55,279 nt of DNA from an uncultured Candidatus Saccharibacteria bacterium (GTDB lineage Bacteria; Patescibacteriota; Doudnabacteria; UBA920). The notes beneath the pieces are model-generated. The model had not been told where the DNA came from. It saw nothing but the letters and a program-made list of their open reading frames with translations, and did no database searches. How positions within the stretch are numbered: the stretch's first letter is position 1; each line of letters starts with the position of its first letter. The position numbers were made by a program, and so were the translations under genes. The stretch covers positions 1-55,279 of the forward strand of contig CAZYMS010000008.1 of NCBI GenBank assembly GCA_964648985.1, written 5' to 3'. Shown here piece by piece: positions 7,908-54,064 of this stretch.

Positions 7908-9654
7908 GCTCATGACTCGGCCACCGTTAAAACCTAAATCAAACTCTGGTCGTATTCGGTTTTTGGCCGGGTTTTTTGGTTTGCTGTTTGTATGCCTTGT
8001 GCTACGGCTTACAACACTTCAGGTCGCCTCTAGTGATTATTATAAAGGTCTTGCCCAGGACCAACATGCTTTTTTTGCGAAGCTTAGTCCTTTGCGGGGC
8101 GACATTAAAATTTCAGATCAATTAAGTCCGGAAAGCTACCCCGTCGCTACCAACATTGAGGCTACATTGGTCTACGCAGTTCCTAAAGATATTAAGGATG
8201 CGCAGGCTACGGCAAAGGCTTTGGCCCCCATAATTGGTTCTACCGAGGGAGATCTTGCTTCTAGGCTCTCAAACTTGGATAGGGTATATGTACCCTTGAA
8301 GCACCGGCTTACCGACAGCGATAAAAAAGCCATAGAAGCATTGAACTTGTCCGGGGTACACTTTGACTCAGAACGCGTGCGTTTTTACCCAGAGAGGCAA
8401 TTTTTAAGCCATATAGTAGGTTTTTTGGGATATAGAAGCGATAGTGGTTCAGATCAGGTCGGTGTATATGGTCTAGAACGAAAGTACGATGCCATACTTT
8501 CCGGTATGGCCGGAGGAATACGTAATCAAAGTGCTGCTGGCCGCTGGTTATTCGGTTCTGGTGGCGACTTCATTCCTGCCCAAAACGGTAACAGCCTCAT
8601 GCTTACTATTGACCGCGCTATCCAAATGCAAGCTGAGCAGGTATTAACTAAAGCAGTAATAGACAACCTTGCGGATGGCGGTTGTATTACCGTTATGGAT
8701 CCCAAAACAGGTGCTATCTTGGCTATGGCCAGTAACCCTAGCTACGATCCAAACGAATATAGTAAAGTGGCCGATCAGGCCGTATTCATTAACTCATGTA
8801 CTAGTAGTAGCTATGAGCCTGGCTCTGTTTTTAAAGCAGTCACTATGGCCGCTGGTGTAGAAAAAGGCGTAGTCGGCCCGGATACTACCTATGACGATAC
8901 GGGACAAGTAGTGGTAGATGGCTATACTATTAAAAACTCAGACAATAAAGCGCACGGTATCCAGACAATGACCCAAGTGCTGGAAGAGTCCCTCAATACT
9001 GGTGTTATTTTTGTGAAAGATAAAATAGGCAACTCACTCTTTTCAGACTATGTGAGTAAATTTGGATTTGGGTCTCCTACCGGTATTGACCTGCCTGAAT
9101 CTACTGGTAACACAAATAATATAAAAGGGAATGTACAAGTAAACTTCGACACTGCAAGTTTTGGTCAGGGTATATCGGTAACACCACTCCAAATGGTGCG
9201 GGCGTATGCCGCACTGGCGAATGGTGGTCGTTTGCCCACGCCGTACGTTGTTGCTGCACAAATTACTCCAGACGGAAAAACAATTTCTACTGAGACCAAA
9301 CTGTCTGCTCCTGTCATCTCAGAAAAAACCGCGAGTACGCTTGGGGCGATGCTTGTGAGCGTGGTAGAGCGAGGACATGGCAAGCGCGCAGCTGTTAAGG
9401 GATATTATGTTGCAGGAAAAACCGGAACCGCACAGGTGGCAAAGAAAGAGGGCGGGGGATATGACCCAAATAATAACATTGGTACTTTTGTTGGGTATGC
9501 GCCCGTAGAAGACCCTAAATTTGTTATGCTTGTACGCGTAAATCACCCGCGCACTGTGCAGTTCGCAGAAAGCACTGCGGCACCTGCCTGGGGACAAATG
9601 GCGCAGTTCTTGCTGTCGTACTTCAATGTGCCACCGAACAGGCCAGTAAAGTGA
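7906..9654 (+). CDS. ftsI: class B penicillin-binding protein (FtsI/PBP2-type transpeptidase)
   Basis: SVFK (SxxK), SDN (SxN) and KTGTA motifs, N-terminal TM anchor, dcw position. Start is the TTG at 7906 or the ATG at 7912. Confidence 0.85.
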   Translation: MLMTRPPLKPKSNSGRIRFLAGFFGLLFVCLVLRLTTLQVASSDYYKGLAQDQHAFFAKLSPLRGDIKISDQLSPESYPVATNIEATLVYAVPKDIKDAQATAKALAPIIGSTEGDLASRLSNLDRVYVPLKHRLTDSDKKAIEALNLSGVHFDSERVRFYPERQFLSHIVGFLGYRSDSGSDQVGVYGLERKYDAILSGMAGGIRNQSAAGRWLFGSGGDFIPAQNGNSLMLTIDRAIQMQAEQVLTKAVIDNLADGGCITVMDPKTGAILAMASNPSYDPNEYSKVADQAVFINSCTSSSYEPGSVFKAVTMAAGVEKGVVGPDTTYDDTGQVVVDGYTIKNSDNKAHGIQTMTQVLEESLNTGVIFVKDKIGNSLFSDYVSKFGFGSPTGIDLPESTGNTNNIKGNVQVNFDTASFGQGISVTPLQMVRAYAALANGGRLPTPYVVAAQITPDGKTISTETKLSAPVISEKTASTLGAMLVSVVERGHGKRAAVKGYYVAGKTGTAQVAKKEGGGYDPNNNIGTFVGYAPVEDPKFVMLVRVNHPRTVQFAESTAAPAWGQMAQFLLSYFNVPPNRPVK

Positions 9655-9748
9655 CAAGTGGCAAGTGTAAAGTGACAAGTAAAACACGAGACCTCGTCTT
9701 GCGCTTCTTTGTTTTTACTTGTCACTCGTCACTTTGCACTCTTCACTG
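9645..9748. repeat. GTGACAAGT-type inverted repeat element overlapping the ftsI stop codon
   Basis: Left arm AAGTGACAAGTGGCAAGTGTAAAGTGACAAGTAAAA, right arm TTTTTACTTGTCACTCGTCACTTTGCACTCTTCACT. The ftsI TGA (9652-9654) lies in the first word. Confidence 0.75.
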
Positions 9749-9973
9749 AGAGTCGTGCTGCGTGCGCAACTTGCCCCAATGAATGTTGTTCCATAGGCGT
9801 TCATGGATTATGTAGAGTATAGTGCTGCCAATATTGGAGAGTATAATTACTTTGAGCGTGGTGTCGTATTGCCGTGTGATAGCAAATATAATAAGCCCAT
9901 CCGCCATGAGAATAATAAACCGATAGGTAATTGCTTTTAAGATAGACCGTTTATAATGTTCGTGGAAAGCCAT
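9743..9973 (-). CDS. DUF2061-like small membrane protein
   Basis: KAITYRFIILMADGLIIFAITR ... ILYIIHERLWN pattern. Start placed at the ATG at 9973 (MAFHEHYKRS). Confidence 0.6.
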   Translation of the reverse strand: MAFHEHYKRSILKAITYRFIILMADGLIIFAITRQYDTTLKVIILSNIGSTILYIIHERLWNNIHWGKLRTQHDSQ

Positions 9974-10003
9974 AATTTCATAAGCTCCAAATATCAAATG
10001 ATA

Positions 10004-10097
10004 AATATCAAATAAATTCCAAATTCAAAAATCTTAAACGTGTACGCTCTCTCTATATTGAATATTGGCATTTTGAATTTGGCGTGTATTTGATATT
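10004..10097. repeat. word-based inverted repeat (ATATCAAAT / CCAAATTC words)
   Basis: AATATCAAATA (10004-10014) is complementary to TATTTGATATT (10087-10097). CCAAATTCAAAA (10019-10030) is complementary to TTTTGAATTTGG (10071-10082). Confidence 0.75.
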
Positions 10098-10113
10098 CAG
10101 TACCTATAATTTG

Positions 10114-10800
10114 TTATTTTAATTCTCTTTTCGTAACATTTATTTGGTCTAGTTCTGCAGCGCAAAAGTTAGTTACAATTTCACGTGCCACGAGCTTTGC
10201 ATTGCCCCTAGTTTCCGCATGGCTGTTCATGAGGCAGTCTGGTTTTTCGTTGTGTACTAAACCAATTTGGTGGCCAAATTCATGTAGTAATGTAGACATG
10301 ACGTACAGTTCTTTTGTTTCGGGGGCAGCAGCGCTAAATTCTTCCAGTCCTTGTTTGTACAAAATAATGCCCCTCTCATTGTACGTTTTGCCGAGTGTGA
10401 GAGGGTTTTCTTCGTTCATACTTTCAAGGTAAATGTATAGCGGCGCGCTGTGTGAGGGTAGGCTGTCGGCACTCGTAAGTAGCTGGACTGGTTTGCCGGT
10501 AACTTCTGTAATTTTTTGACTAAACTGTTGCCATACCGACTCCGCGAACCACGGGTCAACATATGGTTTACGTATCACAGCAATATACTCTGTACGCGTG
10601 CCGAGGTATTCACTTTTTGCATCCCCGTCATCGTGCAGGTTGAATATAGTACGAAAACCTTCAACTTTCGCCAGCCGAGGGCGCCAGGCAGTGTTGAACC
10701 AATTGTCTTCGCTGCCGCTCGCTCCCAGAGCAAAAGCACTCGCTGTAGTGCCGAGGCAAATAATCACTATTAAGACTAGTATTGCAAGAGTTTTTAGCAC
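10114..10800 (-). CDS. secreted zinc metalloprotease, metzincin-like
   Basis: Signal peptide. HEFGHQIGLVH (HExxHxxGxxH) followed by CLMN as a Met-turn candidate. Confidence 0.7.
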   Translation of the reverse strand: MLKTLAILVLIVIICLGTTASAFALGASGSEDNWFNTAWRPRLAKVEGFRTIFNLHDDGDAKSEYLGTRTEYIAVIRKPYVDPWFAESVWQQFSQKITEVTGKPVQLLTSADSLPSHSAPLYIYLESMNEENPLTLGKTYNERGIILYKQGLEEFSAAAPETKELYVMSTLLHEFGHQIGLVHNEKPDCLMNSHAETRGNAKLVAREIVTNFCAAELDQINVTKRELK

Positions 10801-20943: not shown

Positions 20944-21165
20944 TCAATCCCGTGTATGACGCGGAAAGGAGGATCGTGACTAGGATAATCGTTCTCGTTC
21001 TCATTCTGGTTTTCTTTGTTCTTGCCTTCTTAAGGCAGTTGTATCCTATTGAGCCCGCTTGGCCACCAGCGGCGCCATGCCCCAAGGATAAAGACAAAGA
21101 AGAAAAATAGTGTTCCGGCGTGCAGTGTGGTTTGCCAACCCCTGTACGCCTTTTCCTTTAACTTT

Positions 21166-34675: not shown

Positions 34676-34715
34676 AGAGACAACACTTTTCGTGGCCACG
34701 AAAAGTGTTGTCTCT
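34676..34715. repeat. 40-bp perfect palindrome, family copy a
   Basis: AGAGACAACACTTTTCGTGG|CCACGAAAAGTGTTGTCTCT. Confidence 0.9.
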
Positions 34716-36331: not shown

Positions 36332-36368
36332 CCTTTCCACACTTTTCACCCCATTAACATCCCTCTCT

Positions 36369-36408
36369 AAAGACAGCACTGTTCGCGGCCGCGAACAGTG
36401 CTGTCTTT
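36369..36408. repeat. 40-bp perfect palindrome, family copy b
   Basis: AAAGACAGCACTGTTCGCGG|CCGCGAACAGTGCTGTCTTT. Differs from the other copies at paired positions in both arms. Confidence 0.9.
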
Positions 36409-36543
36409 ATATCATGGTTTTTAGTTTCTATTGTTGCTTATTCATAATACGTTTGAGCTATATAAATGCAAAAACAGGGCGGCCAGGAGAGTATGCGCCC
36501 TGTTTTATGCTTAGTGACAGTTTTGTATGGCGCTGGGTGCGCC

Positions 36544-37740: not shown

Positions 37741-37977
37741 TCGCATCTCCTGTGATTTTTTCAGACCAATTTCAATCCTTTTTCTAACACCATAGAGGAG
37801 CCAATTGCTCCTAAAGACAGTAGATTTTGATGGATTGCATACCCTACTCGGCAACCCACCATGGGCAATTAGAAAACATTTACGTTACCATATATACTTC
37901 TCAATGTCAATAGAAGTAAGCGGTATATATTATTTAAGTAACCTCCTCTATTTTTAAAGTCTTTACTATCTGTTTTT

Positions 37978-38017
37978 AAAGACAACACTTTTCGCGGCCG
38001 CGAAAAGTGTTGACTTT
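37978..38017. repeat. 40-bp palindrome, family copy c (one mismatch)
   Basis: AAAGACAACACTTTTCGCGG|CCGCGAAAAGTGTTGACTTT. Confidence 0.9.
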
Positions 38018-41384: not shown

Positions 41385-41424
41385 AAAGACAACACTTTTT
41401 GTGGCCACAAAAAGTGTTGTCTTT
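41385..41424. repeat. 40-bp perfect palindrome, family copy d
   Basis: AAAGACAACACTTTTTGTGG|CCACAAAAAGTGTTGTCTTT. Confidence 0.9.
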
Positions 41425-47222: not shown

Positions 47223-47672
47223 TTAGATGCATGACTCAATCAGTTTTGCAAAAACTTGGCAGCGTTGTTTGCCAATAAACACTACCTGTTGCCTCAGTTG
47301 CTTGTTAAGCTGGGAGAGTCTTTGTTTATTGCATACAAATACAACTCTTCCCCCATAGTGTGCCTCCTTCAGCCGTCTTTTTGCTCTTTTTATTTCATCA
47401 CTGTTTTTTACTTCAACGATGATTATCCGCGTTTGAGCTTTTAAGGGCGGCGATCCATCTCTACGGATGGTTGGGTTAACTTTCTCCCAGCCTCTTATAG
47501 TTGCATCAATAAGCTGCAGGGTACTGCAAGTTACGAGTGCTAACTGTGTGCGTTTTAAAGTTGGGAGGTGCATGGTAATGGATTTCGGTTCAAGGTGGTC
47601 CTCGCTCACAATAAGAGCTACGTTTCTGACCGCGTTCGGTTCTAAATCCGGCATTCTTATTTTTCCAGCCAT
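47223..47672 (-). CDS. hypothetical protein (149 aa)
   Basis: Clean ORF. GGAGGAGG purine-rich tract upstream of the ATG at 47672. No motif recognised. Confidence 0.5.
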   Translation of the reverse strand: MAGKIRMPDLEPNAVRNVALIVSEDHLEPKSITMHLPTLKRTQLALVTCSTLQLIDATIRGWEKVNPTIRRDGSPPLKAQTRIIIVEVKNSDEIKRAKRRLKEAHYGGRVVFVCNKQRLSQLNKQLRQQVVFIGKQRCQVFAKLIESCI

Positions 47673-47791: not shown

Positions 47792-49051
47792 ATGGCAAAA
47801 TCCTCTAAAGAATCAAATAAAGGTAGAGTCTTGGTGGGCATATCTGGTGGAGTAGACTCCGCTGTTTCTGCCTATCTACTACAAAAAGCTGGGTATGTAG
47901 TAGAAGGTGCGTTCATGAAAAATTGGTCTTCTACTACAGGACTAAAGCTTGCAGAATGTCCCTGGCTTGCGGACAGGCAAGAAGCATTGCGTGTTGCTGC
48001 GTTTTTAGGCATACCACTGCACACCTTAGACTTTGAAAAGCAGTACCAAGACACGGTAATGAAATACTTTTTTACCGAGTACCAGGCGGGCCGTACTCCT
48101 AACCCGGATGTTATGTGCAACAAAGAAATAAAGTTTAAGCTGCTTTACAACTGGGCCATGAAAAATGGGTTTGAGTATTTGGCTACAGGGCATTACGCCC
48201 GCGTAGCGGAAGTTAAAAGTGACAAGTGGAAAGTGGAAAGTAAAATTCCTAAATCCGGAAACTTGTCACCTGTTACTCGTCACTTGTCACTCATCCGATC
48301 CGCGGACGAATTTAAAGACCAAACCTACTTTATTTACAACATTAAAACCGAGCAGCTGCCGCACGTGTTGTTTCCTATTGGCGGCATGAAAAAGTCAGAG
48401 GTAAAAAAATTGGCAAAAAAGATTGGCCTGCCCAACGCAGGTCGCAAAGAAAGCATGGGACTTTGCTTTGTGGGAAAGATTCGCCTTAAAGACTTTTTGG
48501 AACAAAAAGTAAAGGCAAAGCCAGGACCGATAAGGCTAGTTGCTAGTGACAAGTTACAAGTTACAAGTTACAAGAAGGGCGCTGGTTTGTCACCTGTCAC
48601 TCGTCACCTGTCACTTTTAGGCACGCATGCCGGTTTGCACAACTACACCATAGGTCAGCGGCAGGGAATTCGTGTAGGAGCTGGTGGACCGTATTATGTA
48701 GTTCGTAAAGACTTAGCAAAAAACACTCTCTATGTAACCACTGACCCAAACGACCCAGCGCTTGAAATTTCTGAGATCGTTATTCACTCTACTAACTGGA
48801 TAGAAGAAGTAGAGAAAAGGGAAAAGGGAAAAGGGAAGAGGCTTGACTCTGGCTACAAACTACAACCTAATTCCTACCAGCTAGTTTGCCGCTATCGTCA
48901 CCAGGGCGAACTAGTACCATGCATTATTGAAAAGCAAAAAAGAGATACCTATCTAGTTAAATTTAAAACGCCTCAGAAGGCGCTTGCAAGTGGACAAAGT
49001 ATAGTGTTCTATTCCGGAAAAGTTTGTTTGGGTGGGGGAGTTATTGTATAA
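47792..49051 (+). CDS. mnmA: tRNA 2-thiouridine(34) synthase MnmA carrying in-frame repeat insertions
   Basis: PP-loop GISGGVDSAVSAY, NPDVMCNKEIKF, ATGHYAR, KDQTYF, GLCFVG and YTIGQRQG motifs. At 419 aa it is longer than typical MnmA. Confidence 0.9.
   Translation: MAKSSKESNKGRVLVGISGGVDSAVSAYLLQKAGYVVEGAFMKNWSSTTGLKLAECPWLADRQEALRVAAFLGIPLHTLDFEKQYQDTVMKYFFTEYQAGRTPNPDVMCNKEIKFKLLYNWAMKNGFEYLATGHYARVAEVKSDKWKVESKIPKSGNLSPVTRHLSLIRSADEFKDQTYFIYNIKTEQLPHVLFPIGGMKKSEVKKLAKKIGLPNAGRKESMGLCFVGKIRLKDFLEQKVKAKPGPIRLVASDKLQVTSYKKGAGLSPVTRHLSLLGTHAGLHNYTIGQRQGIRVGAGGPYYVVRKDLAKNTLYVTTDPNDPALEISEIVIHSTNWIEEVEKREKGKGKRLDSGYKLQPNSYQLVCRYRHQGELVPCIIEKQKRDTYLVKFKTPQKALASGQSIVFYSGKVCLGGGVIV
48216..48291. 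repeat. GTGACAAGT-type inverted repeat element inside mnmA (copy 1, in frame)
   Basis: AAAGTGACAAGTGGAAAGTGGAAAGTAAAA ... AAACTTGTCACCTGTTACTCGTCACTTGTCACT. Encodes KSDKWKVESK...LSPVTRHLSL. Confidence 0.8.
48545..48615. repeat. GTGACAAGT-type inverted repeat element inside mnmA (copy 2, in frame)
   Basis: AGTGACAAGTTACAAGTTACAAGTTACAAG ... TTTGTCACCTGTCACTCGTCACCTGTCACT. Encodes ASDKLQVTSYKK...LSPVTRHLSL. Confidence 0.8.
48814..48841 (+). repeat. tandem heptamer (GAAAAGG)x3 + GAAGAGG inside mnmA
   Basis: Read directly. Encodes EKREKGKGKR within a segment that is extra relative to typical MnmA. Confidence 0.8.
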
Positions 49052-49055
49052 AATA

Positions 49056-49087
49056 ATTGGTGTAAGTTCTTGAGAACTTGCACCAAT
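49056..49087. terminator. bidirectional terminator shared by mnmA and the minus-strand micro-ORF unit
   Basis: About 13-bp stem ATTGGTGTAAGTTC / GAACTTGCACCAAT. A T-rich tract follows on the minus strand. Confidence 0.7.
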
Positions 49088-49096
49088 GTTTGAGTC

Positions 49097-49162
49097 CTAC
49101 CGCTTCTTTGCAGAAGTTTTTGCCGGGGGCTGCTTTCGGGGAGGCAATTTTGTTCCTCTCAA
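49097..49162 (-). CDS. micro-ORF, 21-aa Lys/Arg-rich peptide MRGTKLPPRKQPPAKTSAKKR
   Basis: AAAGGAGGTG lies 7 nt upstream of a TTG start. Translated by hand. Confidence 0.35.
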   Translation of the reverse strand: MRGTKLPPRKQPPAKTSAKKR

Positions 49163-49348
49163 ATTAATGCACCTCCTTTCTTGCGATATAAAAAATGCGG
49201 AGCACTAAATGTAGAAGTTCCTTGTCTACACTTAATGCCCCGTTGTCTATGCTAATAGGCAAAGACTTTACGCAGTAAATCCTGTACGCATTAGGAACTA
49301 TATCCAAGATATAATCTTGGAAGTGCCTACAGGTATTACCTTTAAGCC

Positions 49349-49555
49349 TTATCTCCTATATTCACGCCATCGCCCTTGGCGTTGAGAGCGATTTTTACCT
49401 CCTTTTACCCGGATACCGGCTACTGCTAGCCGGATGAGGTACGTCATTTCCATGTCTTCTGGGGTTAGGCTTTCCTCGTGCTTGTTATGATCCATAACTT
49501 TTTCGAGTCTGACTATAAAGCCATTGTATCCAGTCCGGATGGTCTTGTTTTCCAC
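49349..49555 (-). CDS. small protein (68 aa) with basic C-terminal tail
   Basis: AGGAG lies 5 nt upstream of a GTG start. Present in the ORF track. Confidence 0.4.
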   Translation of the reverse strand: MENKTIRTGYNGFIVRLEKVMDHNKHEESLTPEDMEMTYLIRLAVAGIRVKGGKNRSQRQGRWREYRR

Positions 49556-49690
49556 TGTAGCTCCTGTGGTTGGGCGTTCGCAGTAACAATGAGTGAACTC
49601 ATTTTTTTTACACGCAAGGACTGCATGTATGTACTGCGAAAGGCGGGTTTGGGGTTTAACCTACTCTGTTAGAGCGGGTGCTAAACAACG

Positions 49691-49753
49691 CTACTTTCCC
49701 AGTTTTCTTTTTTTACCGGGAGGCATACGCTTAACGGTTTTGGGTTTCGCCAT
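49691..49753 (-). CDS. micro-ORF, 20-aa Lys/Arg-rich peptide MAKPKTVKRMPPGKKRKLGK
   Basis: AGGAG lies 8 nt upstream of the ATG. The SD overlaps the stop codon of the preceding ORF (TAGGAG). Confidence 0.35.
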   Translation of the reverse strand: MAKPKTVKRMPPGKKRKLGK

Positions 49754-49764
49754 TCGCGATTCTC

Positions 49765-49992
49765 CTATATTGAGTTCGTGTTTAGAACCAGCAGATGCGC
49801 ACTGGTCCTCCTATTAGTTGCAGGGTCCTGTAGGGTAACGTGGGCAGGCCCTGCGTATGTGCGACTATTGTAATAGTTTAATGGCACATCGTCAATCGCA
49901 TTTTCATATGCGTACGTGAGGCAGTACAAATAAAAAACATGCTCTAAGGGCATGTGGTTATTGTGCAGCTGAATAAATTTTGTGGGGGTCAA
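49765..49992 (-). CDS. possible small protein (75 aa from TTG, or 62 aa from an internal ATG)
   Basis: In the ORF track. No convincing RBS. The stop is coupled to the next micro-ORF's SD. Confidence 0.25.
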   Translation of the reverse strand: MTPTKFIQLHNNHMPLEHVFYLYCLTYAYENAIDDVPLNYYNSRTYAGPAHVTLQDPATNRRTSAHLLVLNTNSI

Positions 49993-50022
49993 GCTGGACT
50001 TGCCCCCACTGTTGGTTCCAGA

Positions 50023-50124
50023 TTACCGCCTCTGGTCTTTTGCCTTGGTTACAGGTTTGTCGCCAGTTTTAGTCGACGCCCCTGACTTTTTCGACTGGGT
50101 TTTAGGTCTTCTGATTCTAGCCAT
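50023..50124 (-). CDS. micro-ORF, 33-aa Lys/Arg-rich peptide MARIRRPKTQSKKSGASTKTGDKPVTKAKDQRR
   Basis: GGAG lies 4 nt upstream of the ATG. Followed by a 7+4-bp hairpin (49982-50009). Confidence 0.35.
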   Translation of the reverse strand: MARIRRPKTQSKKSGASTKTGDKPVTKAKDQRR

Positions 50125-50152
50125 ATTGCTCCGTAAGGAATAGAATTGGTGG

Positions 50153-50233
50153 CTACTTTTTACCTCCTGCTTTTTGAGAGGAGGACTTGCGGCCTTTCTT
50201 GTGACCTTTTTTGCGGTATCTTACTTGTATCAA
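50153..50233 (-). CDS. micro-ORF, 26-aa Lys/Arg-rich peptide MIQVRYRKKGHKKGRKSSSQKAGGKK
   Basis: AAGGAGAG lies 5 nt upstream of a TTG start. Translated by hand. Confidence 0.3.
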   Translation of the reverse strand: MIQVRYRKKGHKKGRKSSSQKAGGKK

Positions 50234-50395
50234 ATTTCTCTCCTTTGAGATGGGTGGACGTCAGGTTGGGACGTCGTGGGTGTTACTCCCGTATGGGAGC
50301 GGATTACAGTGTGTAGTTCGGTTGAACTAGTCGTGTACTTCAAGCATAGTTGAAGAACGAGTGGGATCCGGTTAATACATGATTGACCGGGTTTG

Positions 50396-50560
50396 TTACC
50401 TGAGTAACCAGGTAAAAATATGCTGCAGACCGTATATGGTGCCCATTACCGGGTAATGAATTACCACTGTATGATCGCCATACCAGCCTCTAAGGATCGT
50501 GGATGCAAGCTCACCGAACTTTTGGTCGAGCGGTAAAATTGCAAGCGCGATTTTATGCAC
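50396..50560 (-). CDS. small protein (54 aa) MHKIALAILPLDQKFGELASTILRGWYGDHTVVIHYPVMGTIYGLQHIFTWLLR
   Basis: AAGGAG lies 7 nt upstream of a GTG start. Below the 60-aa cut-off of the ORF track. Confidence 0.35.
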   Translation of the reverse strand: MHKIALAILPLDQKFGELASTILRGWYGDHTVVIHYPVMGTIYGLQHIFTWLLR

Positions 50561-50645
50561 GAAGTTTCTCCTTTTCGGATTGGTCTCGTCCGTATTGGAG
50601 CGCTATTGTTCTATGAACAAAAAAGCCCCCAGGAAGGACTTTAGT

Positions 50646-50674
50646 AATGTACTGAAAAAAATATGAAAAGTCAA
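50646..50674 (-). promoter_or_regulatory. candidate promoter for the micro-ORF unit
   Basis: Minus strand TTGACT (50674-50669), 17-nt spacer, TACATT (50651-50646). Confidence 0.3.
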
Positions 50675-50708
50675 TATATCCTGTGGAAAATTTCTACAGG
50701 GAATGGTC

Positions 50709-51269
50709 TTATTCGAACCGTATCGTCTTTACAAGCTCATGAAATATGGGGGAGTTGGATGAGTCTAGTCCCGCATCGAACGTAAAGTAAGTGCTGCCTT
50801 TCTTAACACCAATGAGCGCATCACTTACTTTAAGTGCAGGGTTTCCAGCAAGGGTAGTTTTAGTTTGAGGCAGTCCTTCAAACCCAAGGTAGCCAGTAGG
50901 GCTTATGAATATATTTATACGGCTGTTCTGATCTGATTTTGAGGTAAGAGCTATAAGTCTTTCGTTGCCTGCTTGTTGGTTGCTTATTGCAAGATCTTCC
51001 GGGTGACGGAAAGTAAGTCGCGTGGCAGCATCGGTGTAGGTGAGCCACTTTGTGGTATCTATAGTTACTTTTTCTTTCTTATCCTGCTGTGGGGAAGGTA
51101 AAACTACATTTCGTACCCGGCTGCTACCGAGTGCTGCAGCAAAAATAGCTAAAATAATAACGAAGCCTATAAACATAGTCACTACAGGGCGGTGCTTGTG
51201 AAGAGGGTGTGGCCGGTTTTCGCTTGCAGGACTGCGGTGGCGAATTGGAGTACGTTTTTGTGTTGGCAT
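50709..51269 (-). CDS. hypothetical membrane-anchored protein (186 aa)
   Basis: Basic N-terminus, one TM helix (VVTMFIGFVIILAIFAAALG), extracytoplasmic domain. Confidence 0.55.
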   Translation of the reverse strand: MPTQKRTPIRHRSPASENRPHPLHKHRPVVTMFIGFVIILAIFAAALGSSRVRNVVLPSPQQDKKEKVTIDTTKWLTYTDAATRLTFRHPEDLAISNQQAGNERLIALTSKSDQNSRINIFISPTGYLGFEGLPQTKTTLAGNPALKVSDALIGVKKGSTYFTFDAGLDSSNSPIFHELVKTIRFE

Positions 51270-53749: not shown

Positions 53750-54064
53750 ATGTGGGATAGTAGAACTAAGCAGTTTCCACCAGGCGAAATAGACGCCCTG
53801 GAGTTCTTGGATGCTGAGATGTTAGTGGTGCCGCTTAGAGCCTCGGCTCCCGTAGTGATTGTGCGAGCGCTTGCTGAACTCAGACTTCATGAGCTTGCGG
53901 CAGCGCAGCTCGACGAGCGGTTGACTACTCTTTTACTTGACCAAAGTCTGACCGCGCGTTGGAGAGATTTCGACAAAGATCTATTCGTCAATGATGAAGA
54001 CCGGCAGTATGCCCGGGATCTTGAGCAACAACTTCTCGCTCGCTCGCTCCAACCTGTCACCTAA
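53750..54064 (+). CDS. hypothetical protein (104 aa); the ORF looks comparatively GC-rich
   Basis: AGGAGG-type RBS (caaggaggccctt ATG). No motif recognised. Confidence 0.45.
   Translation: MWDSRTKQFPPGEIDALEFLDAEMLVVPLRASAPVVIVRALAELRLHELAAAQLDERLTTLLLDQSLTARWRDFDKDLFVNDEDRQYARDLEQQLLARSLQPVT

Follow-up and report, generated by a model that had tools for sequence, protein, structure and literature searches.

A gene-poor gap in a Patescibacteria genome appears to hold two small operons of Shine-Dalgarno-led micro-genes

The window analyzed here is a 55,279-nt contig from a member of the Patescibacteria (candidate phyla radiation, CPR), and our subject is its segment 49052-50708, a region of 1.65 kb with small open reading frames (ORFs) on the minus strand. 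The region is flanked by two convergent genes, mnmA (47792-49051, plus strand) and hyp186 (50709-51269, minus strand), the latter an orphan gene for a 186-aa protein. In a codon-scored gene set it is the largest uncovered gap of the window, with 1657 nt compared to 456 nt for the second largest, and the ORF listing agrees with the first-pass annotation that 49993-50708 is devoid of any ORF of at least 60 aa. We consider it moderately probable, from sequence comparison, that the gap comprises two accessory minus-strand operons of translated micro-genes, led by Shine-Dalgarno (SD) motifs, which fall below the thresholds of gene callers or confuse them. The promoters and leader blocks are conserved, and the core genes lack an SD while the genes of the cluster have one.

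Coding signals in the small ORFs

The seven minus-strand ORFs proposed by the first-pass annotation (54, 26, 33, 75, 20, 68, and 21 aa) were recovered with the same coordinates and translations, and the Lys+Arg content of the four short peptides is 36-45%, as it had counted. The SD motifs and spacings are also correct with one amendment, in that the spacing between AAGGAGAG and the TTG of the 26-aa ORF is 4 nt and not 5 nt. Such motifs greatly exceed a chance baseline made of 1000 dinucleotide-preserving shuffles of the region. An SD is found 3-11 nt upstream of 7 of the 14 minus-strand ORFs of at least 20 aa, compared to 0.85 ± 0.92 in the shuffles, where 0 of 1000 reach seven. ORFs that are both SD-led and at least 33% Lys+Arg number four, against 0.009 expected, and SD-like 5-mers number 21, against 7.3 expected. 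On the plus strand, 2 of 22 ORFs are SD-led.

Eighty loci picked by mnmA have no DNA or tblastx similarity to the region, and closer relatives were therefore reached through hyp186 homologues and exact-protein look-ups. The most useful locus is L084, where hyp186 is 89% identical and the gap aligns to window positions 50693-49802 with 80% identity over ~900 nt. L095 covers the first 465 nt of the region, and L083, L086, and L092 have only short blocks in common with it. In the flanking core genes, synonymous sites are near saturation between the window and L084 (proportion of synonymous differences, pS, 0.61-0.72; fourfold-site identity 39-48%), so the ~900 nt at 80% identity must either be constrained throughout or have been exchanged more recently.

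Within this alignment, the pattern of change follows the predicted reading frames. None of the 25 indels in a global alignment of window and L084 (positions 15-1018) falls within the 54-, 26-, and 33-aa ORFs, which make up 35% of its length (P = 2.4e-5). The ratio of non-synonymous to synonymous divergence (dN/dS) in the ORF frames is 0.23 for the 54-aa ORF, 0.13 for the 26-aa ORF, and 0.32 for the 33-aa ORF, whereas non-ORF frames give about 0.8-4. Mismatches at the first, second, and third codon positions number 8/2/12 in the 54-aa ORF and 5/2/10 in the 26-aa ORF, which also keeps its stop codon. The 33-aa ORF has an identical ATG, stop, and length in L084, with 13 synonymous and 18 non-synonymous changes. 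Of the 20-aa ORF, whose SD is present in both genomes, L084 keeps a 12-residue core, TVKRMPPGK-RK, with 7.5 synonymous and 2.5 non-synonymous changes and 8 of 10 mismatches at third positions. All four ORFs summed give 21/15/44. For the micro-ORFs the distribution is 13/13/32 (P = 0.002), with 30 synonymous changes at 49.5 synonymous sites and 28 non-synonymous ones at 163.5 non-synonymous sites (P = 2e-6), that is, 30 of 58 changes are synonymous compared to 23% expected; examples are Ser TCG to AGC in the 33-aa ORF and Arg CGT to AGA. The 160-nt spacer that separates the 54-aa from the 26-aa ORF served as a control and has no codon periodicity (7/8/10). L084 keeps the stop codons and most of the SDs of these ORFs. 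Opposite the 54-aa ORF, the antisense frame with common third positions is fragmented; opposite the 26-aa ORF it is closed, and the coding signal of the latter therefore belongs to the minus strand. Judged by these patterns, the 54-, 26-, and 20-aa ORFs, and probably the 33-aa ORF, evolve as coding sequence under purifying selection, and all four are probably translated.

Several observations weigh against translated micro-genes. The codon scores of the minus-strand ORFs are intermediate, at 0.05-0.17 per codon, between the 0.25 ± 0.10 of true genes and the -0.10 ± 0.12 of spurious ORFs. The antisense frame sharing third positions is open in both genomes for the 33-aa ORF, and for the 20-aa ORF it is open in the window and reduced to 28 codons in L084, which blurs the strand assignment in both cases; given the states of these frames, we regard the 54- and 26-aa ORFs as firmly assigned, the assignment of the 20-aa ORF as good, and that of the 33-aa ORF as moderate. 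L084, the sole informative comparator for the micropeptides, has no SD before its 33-aa ORF. Outside the window's species, the micropeptide ORFs occur in L084 alone; L083 and L086 have none of them, and among the comparator loci the DNA of the 68-, 47-, and 21-aa ORFs is common to no relative. The products have no match in Pfam, NCBIfam, PHROGs, PADLOC, or PDB sequences. Because the micropeptides occur in two close lineages only, the general significance of the locus is limited until more loci are found.

Two transcription units and their leaders

The first-pass annotation had placed all seven ORFs in one operon. Because the region contains an internal terminator and a second promoter, it is better described as two transcription units (Table 1). 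The promoter-like site TTGACT-17-TACATT at 50674-50646 was found again in a consensus scan, and stable folds were obtained for the hairpins at 49982-50009, 50368-50390, and 49056-49087, as had been noted. The last of these had also been called a bidirectional terminator, which stands in part: the hairpin is stable and likely shared, but its U-tract is weak, and the terminator scan does not flag it because it has no T-run.

Table 1. Predicted features of units A and B, in order along the minus strand
Feature	Positions	Strand	Basis or remark
P1, sigma-70-like promoter TTGACT-17-TACATT	50646-50674	-	consensus scan; 35 nt past hyp186 stop
Hairpin with U-run, probable hyp186 terminator	50622-50642	-	terminator scan, fold
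Perfect 6-3-6 palindrome TTGTTCTATGAACAA	50606-50620	.	just 3' of P1; near-invariant in window, L084, L083, L086
54-aa orphan protein, predicted gene, AAGGAG-7-GTG	50396-50560	-	no indel vs L084
Two hairpins past and overlapping the 54-aa stop	50368-50415	-	dG -15.2, z -2.5; sequence kept in L084
26-aa polycationic peptide, predicted gene, AAGGAGAG SD 4 nt before TTG	50153-50233	-	no indel, same stop in L084
33-aa polycationic peptide, predicted gene	50023-50124	-	no indel vs L084
Unit A end: hairpin over 33-aa stop, strong hairpin 50009-49982, hairpin + U6 terminator 49955-49937	49929-50035	-	folds, terminator scan; kept in L084
P2, sigma-70-like promoter TTGACG-17-TACAAT, 10/12 consensus positions	49867-49895	-	consensus scan
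Unit B 5' leader: hairpin, then AUAGGAGGACCAG (49802-49814) half-buried in second hairpin	49784-49854	-	folds, RNAalifold
20-aa polycationic peptide, predicted gene, AGGAG-8-ATG	49691-49753	-	window and L084 only; absent from L083, L086
Candidate three-way-junction RNA in leader, hairpin loop GUCCU	49577-49640	-	directly 5' of next ORF's SD
68-aa orphan ORF, AGGAG-5-GTG	49349-49555	-	SD past conserved leader
47-aa ORF, doubtful	49164-49307	-	no SD; codon score borderline
21-aa basic ORF, putative, AAAGGAGGTG-7-TTG	49097-49162	-	strong SD; codon score negative
15-bp palindromic hairpin between convergent mnmA and unit B	49056-49087	.	dG -14.5, z -5.7

In unit A, transcription from P1 would run through the gene for the 54-aa helical orphan protein and those for the 26- and 33-aa polycationic peptides to the tandem terminator hairpins. 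The -35 hexamer of P1 is invariant and its -10 keeps TAnnnT in five aligned lineages (window, L084, L083, L086, and L092); L095 keeps the TTGACT hexamer, as judged by blastn similarity over the block and the ORF listing. The hairpin that follows is probably the terminator of hyp186, and P1 transcripts would start inside its 5' arm; L092 keeps this structure with different stem bases (AAGCACC...GGGUGUU). The palindrome just downstream may be an operator.

Homologues of the 54-aa protein occur in further lineages. An ortholog was recognized in L095 by inspection, the N-terminus of a 165-aa protein of L083 (P0012) matches with E 8e-12, a weak syntenic match occurs in L092 (E 0.02), and L086 has a broken copy. 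A GGAG-type SD with 5-9 nt spacing precedes the start in up to five lineages (window, L084, L083, L092, and L095). A profile search of protein clusters returned P0012 as the sole match, and the AlphaFold model is a low-confidence helical hairpin (pLDDT 64). Two metagenome hits, L099 and L100, proved to be false positives that lie antisense to an unrelated gene.

Unit B would start at P2 with a structured leader that carries a non-initiating SD-like box, followed by the 20-aa peptide, the three-way-junction RNA, an SD with the 68-aa ORF (and possibly the 47- and 21-aa ORFs), and finally the hairpin shared with mnmA. Both hexamers of P2 are invariant in the window, L084, L083, and L086, with a variable spacer. 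In the first leader hairpin, RNAalifold finds one pair exchanged from G-C to A-U. The SD-like AUAGGAGGACCAG is invariant, with no conserved start codon after it. Pattern scans of genome and metagenome collections for conserved block 1 (TTGACTTTTCATATTTTTTTCAGTA...GGGGGCTTTTTTGTTCATAGAACAATAG) and block 2 (CAGGACCCTGC...ATAGGAGGACCAG) returned the L083 genome alone.

This arrangement leaves little room for the 75-aa ORF (49765-49992) that had been counted among the seven. It starts in a terminator hairpin and spans the second terminator, P2, and the leader hairpins, and its mismatches to L084 lack codon periodicity (13/12/17). The seven indels against L084 add up to multiples of three, and an ORF is retained there in L084; in L083 and L086, the nucleotides of the stretch are conserved but no ORF runs across it. 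We take the 75-aa ORF to be most likely regulatory DNA, that is, promoter and leader, and not a gene.

The second structured element of unit B is a candidate three-way-junction RNA. When folded independently, the sequences of the window, L083, and L084 all take on a common Y shape, with differing helix sequences and a conserved GUCCU loop; the folding z-scores are -4.2 in the window, -2.6 in L083, -0.75 in L084, and -0.2 in L086. Column-wise covariation counts are weak in the four sequences because the helices shift register. A covariance model finds no copies beyond the four orthologous sites in the window and 21 related loci. After the junction RNA, the small ORF that GCCCAAaCAcAGGAG precedes differs from lineage to lineage, being 68 aa in the window, 92 aa in L083, a zinc-ribbon of ~45 aa in L084, and yet another in L086, with an SD before this post-leader ORF in all four. 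With a codon score of 0.16 per codon, the 68-aa ORF exceeds the 95th percentile of spurious ORFs, and it has no homologue but itself among 1.84 billion representative proteins; it is plausibly a gene. Small zinc-ribbon ORFs (CPxC...CxxC) were seen on the same strand in the inserts of relatives, at L084:5670-5870, L086:1164-1328, and L083:6783-7280 (C-terminal end), with none on that strand in the window.

With so much conserved structure, it has to be asked whether the region is non-coding, comprising one or more long structured RNAs or small RNAs whose purine tracts mimic SDs and whose ORFs are incidental. The ~80% identity to L084 extends even between the ORFs, far above the neutral level of the neighboring genes, stable hairpins are numerous, helices of the conserved leader blocks differ in sequence between lineages, and AUAGGAGGACCAG is invariant without a start codon after it, all of which would suit an RNA. 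However, indels avoid the ORFs, and the third-position and synonymous bias is confined to the ORFs and not found in the 160-nt spacer. The formal covariation of the best element is weak, and in Rfam the window has nothing at the gathering threshold, the sole match to the region at E up to 10 being a chance-level DUF805b hit of 11.9 bits. We find the non-coding explanation, which the first-pass annotation had listed, distinctly unlikely as a full account of the region; what survives of it are conserved structured leader elements between the ORFs.

Automated annotation offers yet another view, in which genes lie on the plus strand: a 62-aa and a 64-aa ORF, fused to a 112-aa CxxC...CxxC ORF in a variant with one T fewer. 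Gene callers report them on three near-identical contigs (L081, L082, and L094), the length difference between T7 and T8 fuses the two ORFs, and the missing SD is no argument against them because core genes lack an SD as well. However, these ORFs overlap the conserved minus-strand leader and the junction RNA, L084 has nine frame-changing indels and just a 28-codon open stretch, ~70 nt of the stretch are missing in L083, and their codon score is about zero or negative. AT skew also favors the minus strand, which is A-rich and sense-like over 49100-50450. We give the plus-strand genes next to no weight. The one T, in the T8 run at 49602-49609, is the sole difference between the three contigs in the region; they come from different samples, and the T7/T8 difference (A7/A8 on the minus strand) falls in the linker of the junction RNA.

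Shine-Dalgarno usage and possible functions

The SDs of the cluster stand out from the rest of the genome. Counted as GGAG, GAGG, or AGGA 3-11 nt upstream, an SD precedes a single one of the 47 long ORFs of the window, and allowing any start in the first 40 codons raises the count to four; upstream sequences without one are A/T-rich, for example, at 2223, 4438, 13583, 40446, and 47792. The core genes of L083 and L084 show the same scarcity. The SD-led exceptions are, in the window, the small-ORF cluster, hyp149, hyp104, and a 44-aa ORF, and, in L083, a 121-aa and a 184-aa gene. Since the core genes lack an SD, SD-led translation marks this cluster and a few other orphan genes, and the SDs before the 54-aa gene and the post-leader ORF would be functional because they are kept across lineages with diverged surroundings. 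Dependence on an SD would thus give the peptides a translation regime distinct from that of the rest of the proteome.

The other exceptions of the window are diverse. The orphan hyp149 (47223-47672, minus strand, 149 aa) has a strong SD, AGGAGGAGG / AGGAGGAGGA, that is conserved in L083 and L084; its codon score is low, its pS to L084 is 0.36 against 0.61-0.72 in its neighbors, and it is absent from more distant relatives. The 44-aa ORF (20976-21110, plus strand) is hydrophobic and preceded by AAGGAGG-3-GTG, and hyp104 (53750-54064, plus strand, 104 aa) by AAGGAGG-5-ATG.

The four peptides carry a net charge of +8 to +11, with 5-12% bulky hydrophobic residues and 75-82% polar or disorder-promoting ones, and lack both a signal or leader sequence and a hydrophobic segment at the N-terminus. 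Their maximum helical hydrophobic moment is 0.43-0.56, compared to 0.69-0.97 for reference antimicrobial peptides (AMPs). Given the high charge, the few hydrophobic residues, and the low moment, their composition is unlike that of membrane-active AMPs and resembles nucleic-acid-binding tails. No Pfam or NCBIfam match was found for the four peptides, and no PDB sequence match for those of 26, 33, and 20 aa, each at E up to 10 and with tools whose bias filters limit the sensitivity for short low-complexity queries; the four concatenated matched nothing among 5.8 billion protein clusters. The 20-aa peptide ends in a bS22-like manner (...KKRKLGK), but profile and PDB searches do not support such a relationship.

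Exported cationic peptides, antimicrobial or directed at a host, with the small proteins as immunity or helper factors, would be one way to read these products. The peptides are short and highly positive, the locus is accessory and fast-evolving, and the phylum is known for an episymbiotic lifestyle. The hydrophobic content and moment given above and the lack of a signal or leader sequence count against export and membrane activity, however, as does the lack of an adjoining transporter, protease, or modification gene: the neighbors (mnmA, the gene for the 186-aa protein, and DUF4434) contain no ABC transporter, protease, or modification domains. We give this explanation very little weight. The first-pass candidate of a cationic micropeptide cluster with partner proteins is consequently retained in part, in that the 54-, 26-, 33-, and 20-aa ORFs behave as coding, but not as one operon, not with the 75-aa gene, and with an antimicrobial or membrane role disfavored by composition. 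For the SD-led micro-genes, the function that we consider most likely is an intracellular one: the peptides would bind polyanions, such as RNA, the ribosome, or DNA, or would neutralize the co-transcribed small proteins as in toxin/antidote operons.

Several known systems offer parallels. The yrzI (spyTA) operon of Bacillus subtilis produces a polycistronic mRNA for up to four peptides (38, 49, 17, and 52 aa), among them a peptide toxin and a peptide antidote, and its exceptionally strong SD also stabilizes the mRNA (PMC12067863). The present locus likewise has several SD-led micro-ORFs in a row on one short, here predicted, transcript, with unusually strong SDs, structured mRNA ends, unannotated peptides, and a small protein followed by a shorter peptide. 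It differs in having no similarity in sequence and in its peptides, which are polycationic and of low complexity; the host otherwise lacks SDs, and toxin and antidote roles are here an analogy only. In the 5' mRNA stabilizer of Bacillus thuringiensis cry3A, termed STAB-SD (PMC4113751), we see a counterpart to the invariant AUAGGAGGACC that lies ~45-60 nt from where transcripts of unit B are predicted to start, with no conserved start codon after it; unlike STAB-SD, AUAGGAGGACC is partly paired in a hairpin, and stabilization is likewise only an analogy. We claim membership in neither system. The peptides and small proteins are new, unannotated families in a known kind of system, the small-ORF operon, and the unusual aspect is the SD dependence in an SD-poor genome.

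This dependence has a precedent in the Bacteroidia, where ribosomes sequester the anti-SD and a strong SD is retained by rpsU, which encodes bS21, a small basic protein (PMC9976891, PMC7797042, PMC13000453). As there, the core genes of the window lack an SD and a strong one is found on a few genes for small basic products; unlike there, several genes and not one are concerned, there is no bS21 homology, and there is no sign of ribosomal products. In size (20-45 aa), Lys+Arg content (35-45%), and probable disorder, the peptides resemble bL34, bL36, bS22, bL37, and Thx. They differ from these and from bS21 in having no hidden Markov model or PDB sequence match, in lying outside a ribosomal operon, and in occurring in two close lineages as opposed to phylum-wide conservation. 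Some Parcubacteria miss the anti-SD motif altogether (PMC9297842); the window has no rRNA gene. A more far-reaching proposal, to which we attach little weight, is that the SD-led micro-ORFs form a specialized translation regulon in a CPR bacterium with normally SD-independent initiation. The peptides would then be lineage-specific factors associated with the ribosome or rRNA, like bS21, bS22, or Thx, their synthesis would depend on the availability of the 16S anti-SD tail and feed back on it, and this control would also involve the conserved non-initiating AUAGGAGGACCAG box together with the GUCCU loop.

The locus would illustrate that a streamlined CPR genome can carry conserved micro-genes of 20-54 codons in DNA that looks empty, and that standard callers miss such genes or replace them with spurious calls on the opposite strand. 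The SD-led genes offer a concrete handle on how SD-poor Patescibacteria divide up translation initiation. Should the peptides turn out to bind ribosomes or RNA, or to act as toxin/antidote pairs, they would constitute a new family of small effectors in a phylum with mostly uncharacterized accessory genes.

An accessory insert at a variable site

The nearest public metagenome-assembled genomes (MAGs), with 54-68% MnmA identity, are labelled Doudnabacteria or Saccharibacteria. In relatives, the mnmA/hyp186 pair is syntenic and convergent, and the intervening DNA ranges from 2 nt to 4.8 kb with unrelated genes: the gap measures 2 nt in the P0009 lineage, which lacks the insert; in some relatives it is 190-620 nt long and encodes a small membrane protein, and in others it spans 1-4.8 kb and holds genes for soluble and membrane pyrophosphatases. 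None of these gap sequences resembles the region of the window by DNA comparison or tblastx. Because the gap varies in size and content and none resembles that of the window, the segment is, on this comparison, a lineage-restricted accessory insert between mnmA and hyp186, absent or replaced in sister lineages. Remnants of the pyrophosphatase genes were also considered, and the region has no similarity to them.

An accessory insert could be the decaying remnant of a mobile element, a prophage, or former genes, with the ORFs as functionless relics, and the variable site, the 2-nt gap of the P0009 lineage, an SD usage foreign to the host's core genes, the broken 54-aa homologue in L086, the post-leader ORF that differs in every lineage, and the orphan status of all products are in keeping with this. 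However, the ORFs appear to be under purifying selection and not in decay, and the promoters and leaders are strongly conserved. The insert has no integrase, transposase, or flanking repeats. The region has no blastn match in phage or plasmid collections and no viral-contig match, and the window ORFs have no PHROG or PADLOC match; a phage, plasmid, or defense origin was set aside for want of matches. Decay is, in our judgment, unlikely. The mobile or phage remnant proposed in the first-pass annotation is right about an accessory insert at a variable site, but not about mobility genes, phage or plasmid similarity, or decay, and we keep to the two operons of SD-led micro-genes.

The surroundings of the insert show further variation. 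In L083, the closest MAG, a 53-aa N-terminal mnmA fragment adjoins hyp149 at 8112-10392, and the SD-led 121-aa orphan gene lies between the fragment and the full mnmA, which points to a rearrangement or insertion at the locus. In L085 (1499-2169), where hyp186 is 80% identical, the DNA after hyp186 is unrelated to the insert of the window, yet it holds a basic 64-aa ORF with 32% Lys+Arg. Besides being an orphan, the hyp186 protein is membrane-anchored, and DUF4434 is also encoded nearby.

Two kinds of repeat were seen elsewhere in the window. The mnmA gene contains two in-frame copies (48216-48291 and 48543-48615) of an inverted-repeat element of ~75 nt, each encoding ...LSPVTRHLSL..., and a third copy is intergenic (9648-9747); it looks like a small repeat element that is tolerated within coding sequence. 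Perfect palindromes of ~40 nt, AAAGACAACACTTTTCGCGGCCGCGAAAAGTGTTGTCTTT, occur between genes at 34676-34715, 36368-36409, 37977-38017, and 41385-41424, and are REP-like or terminator-like.

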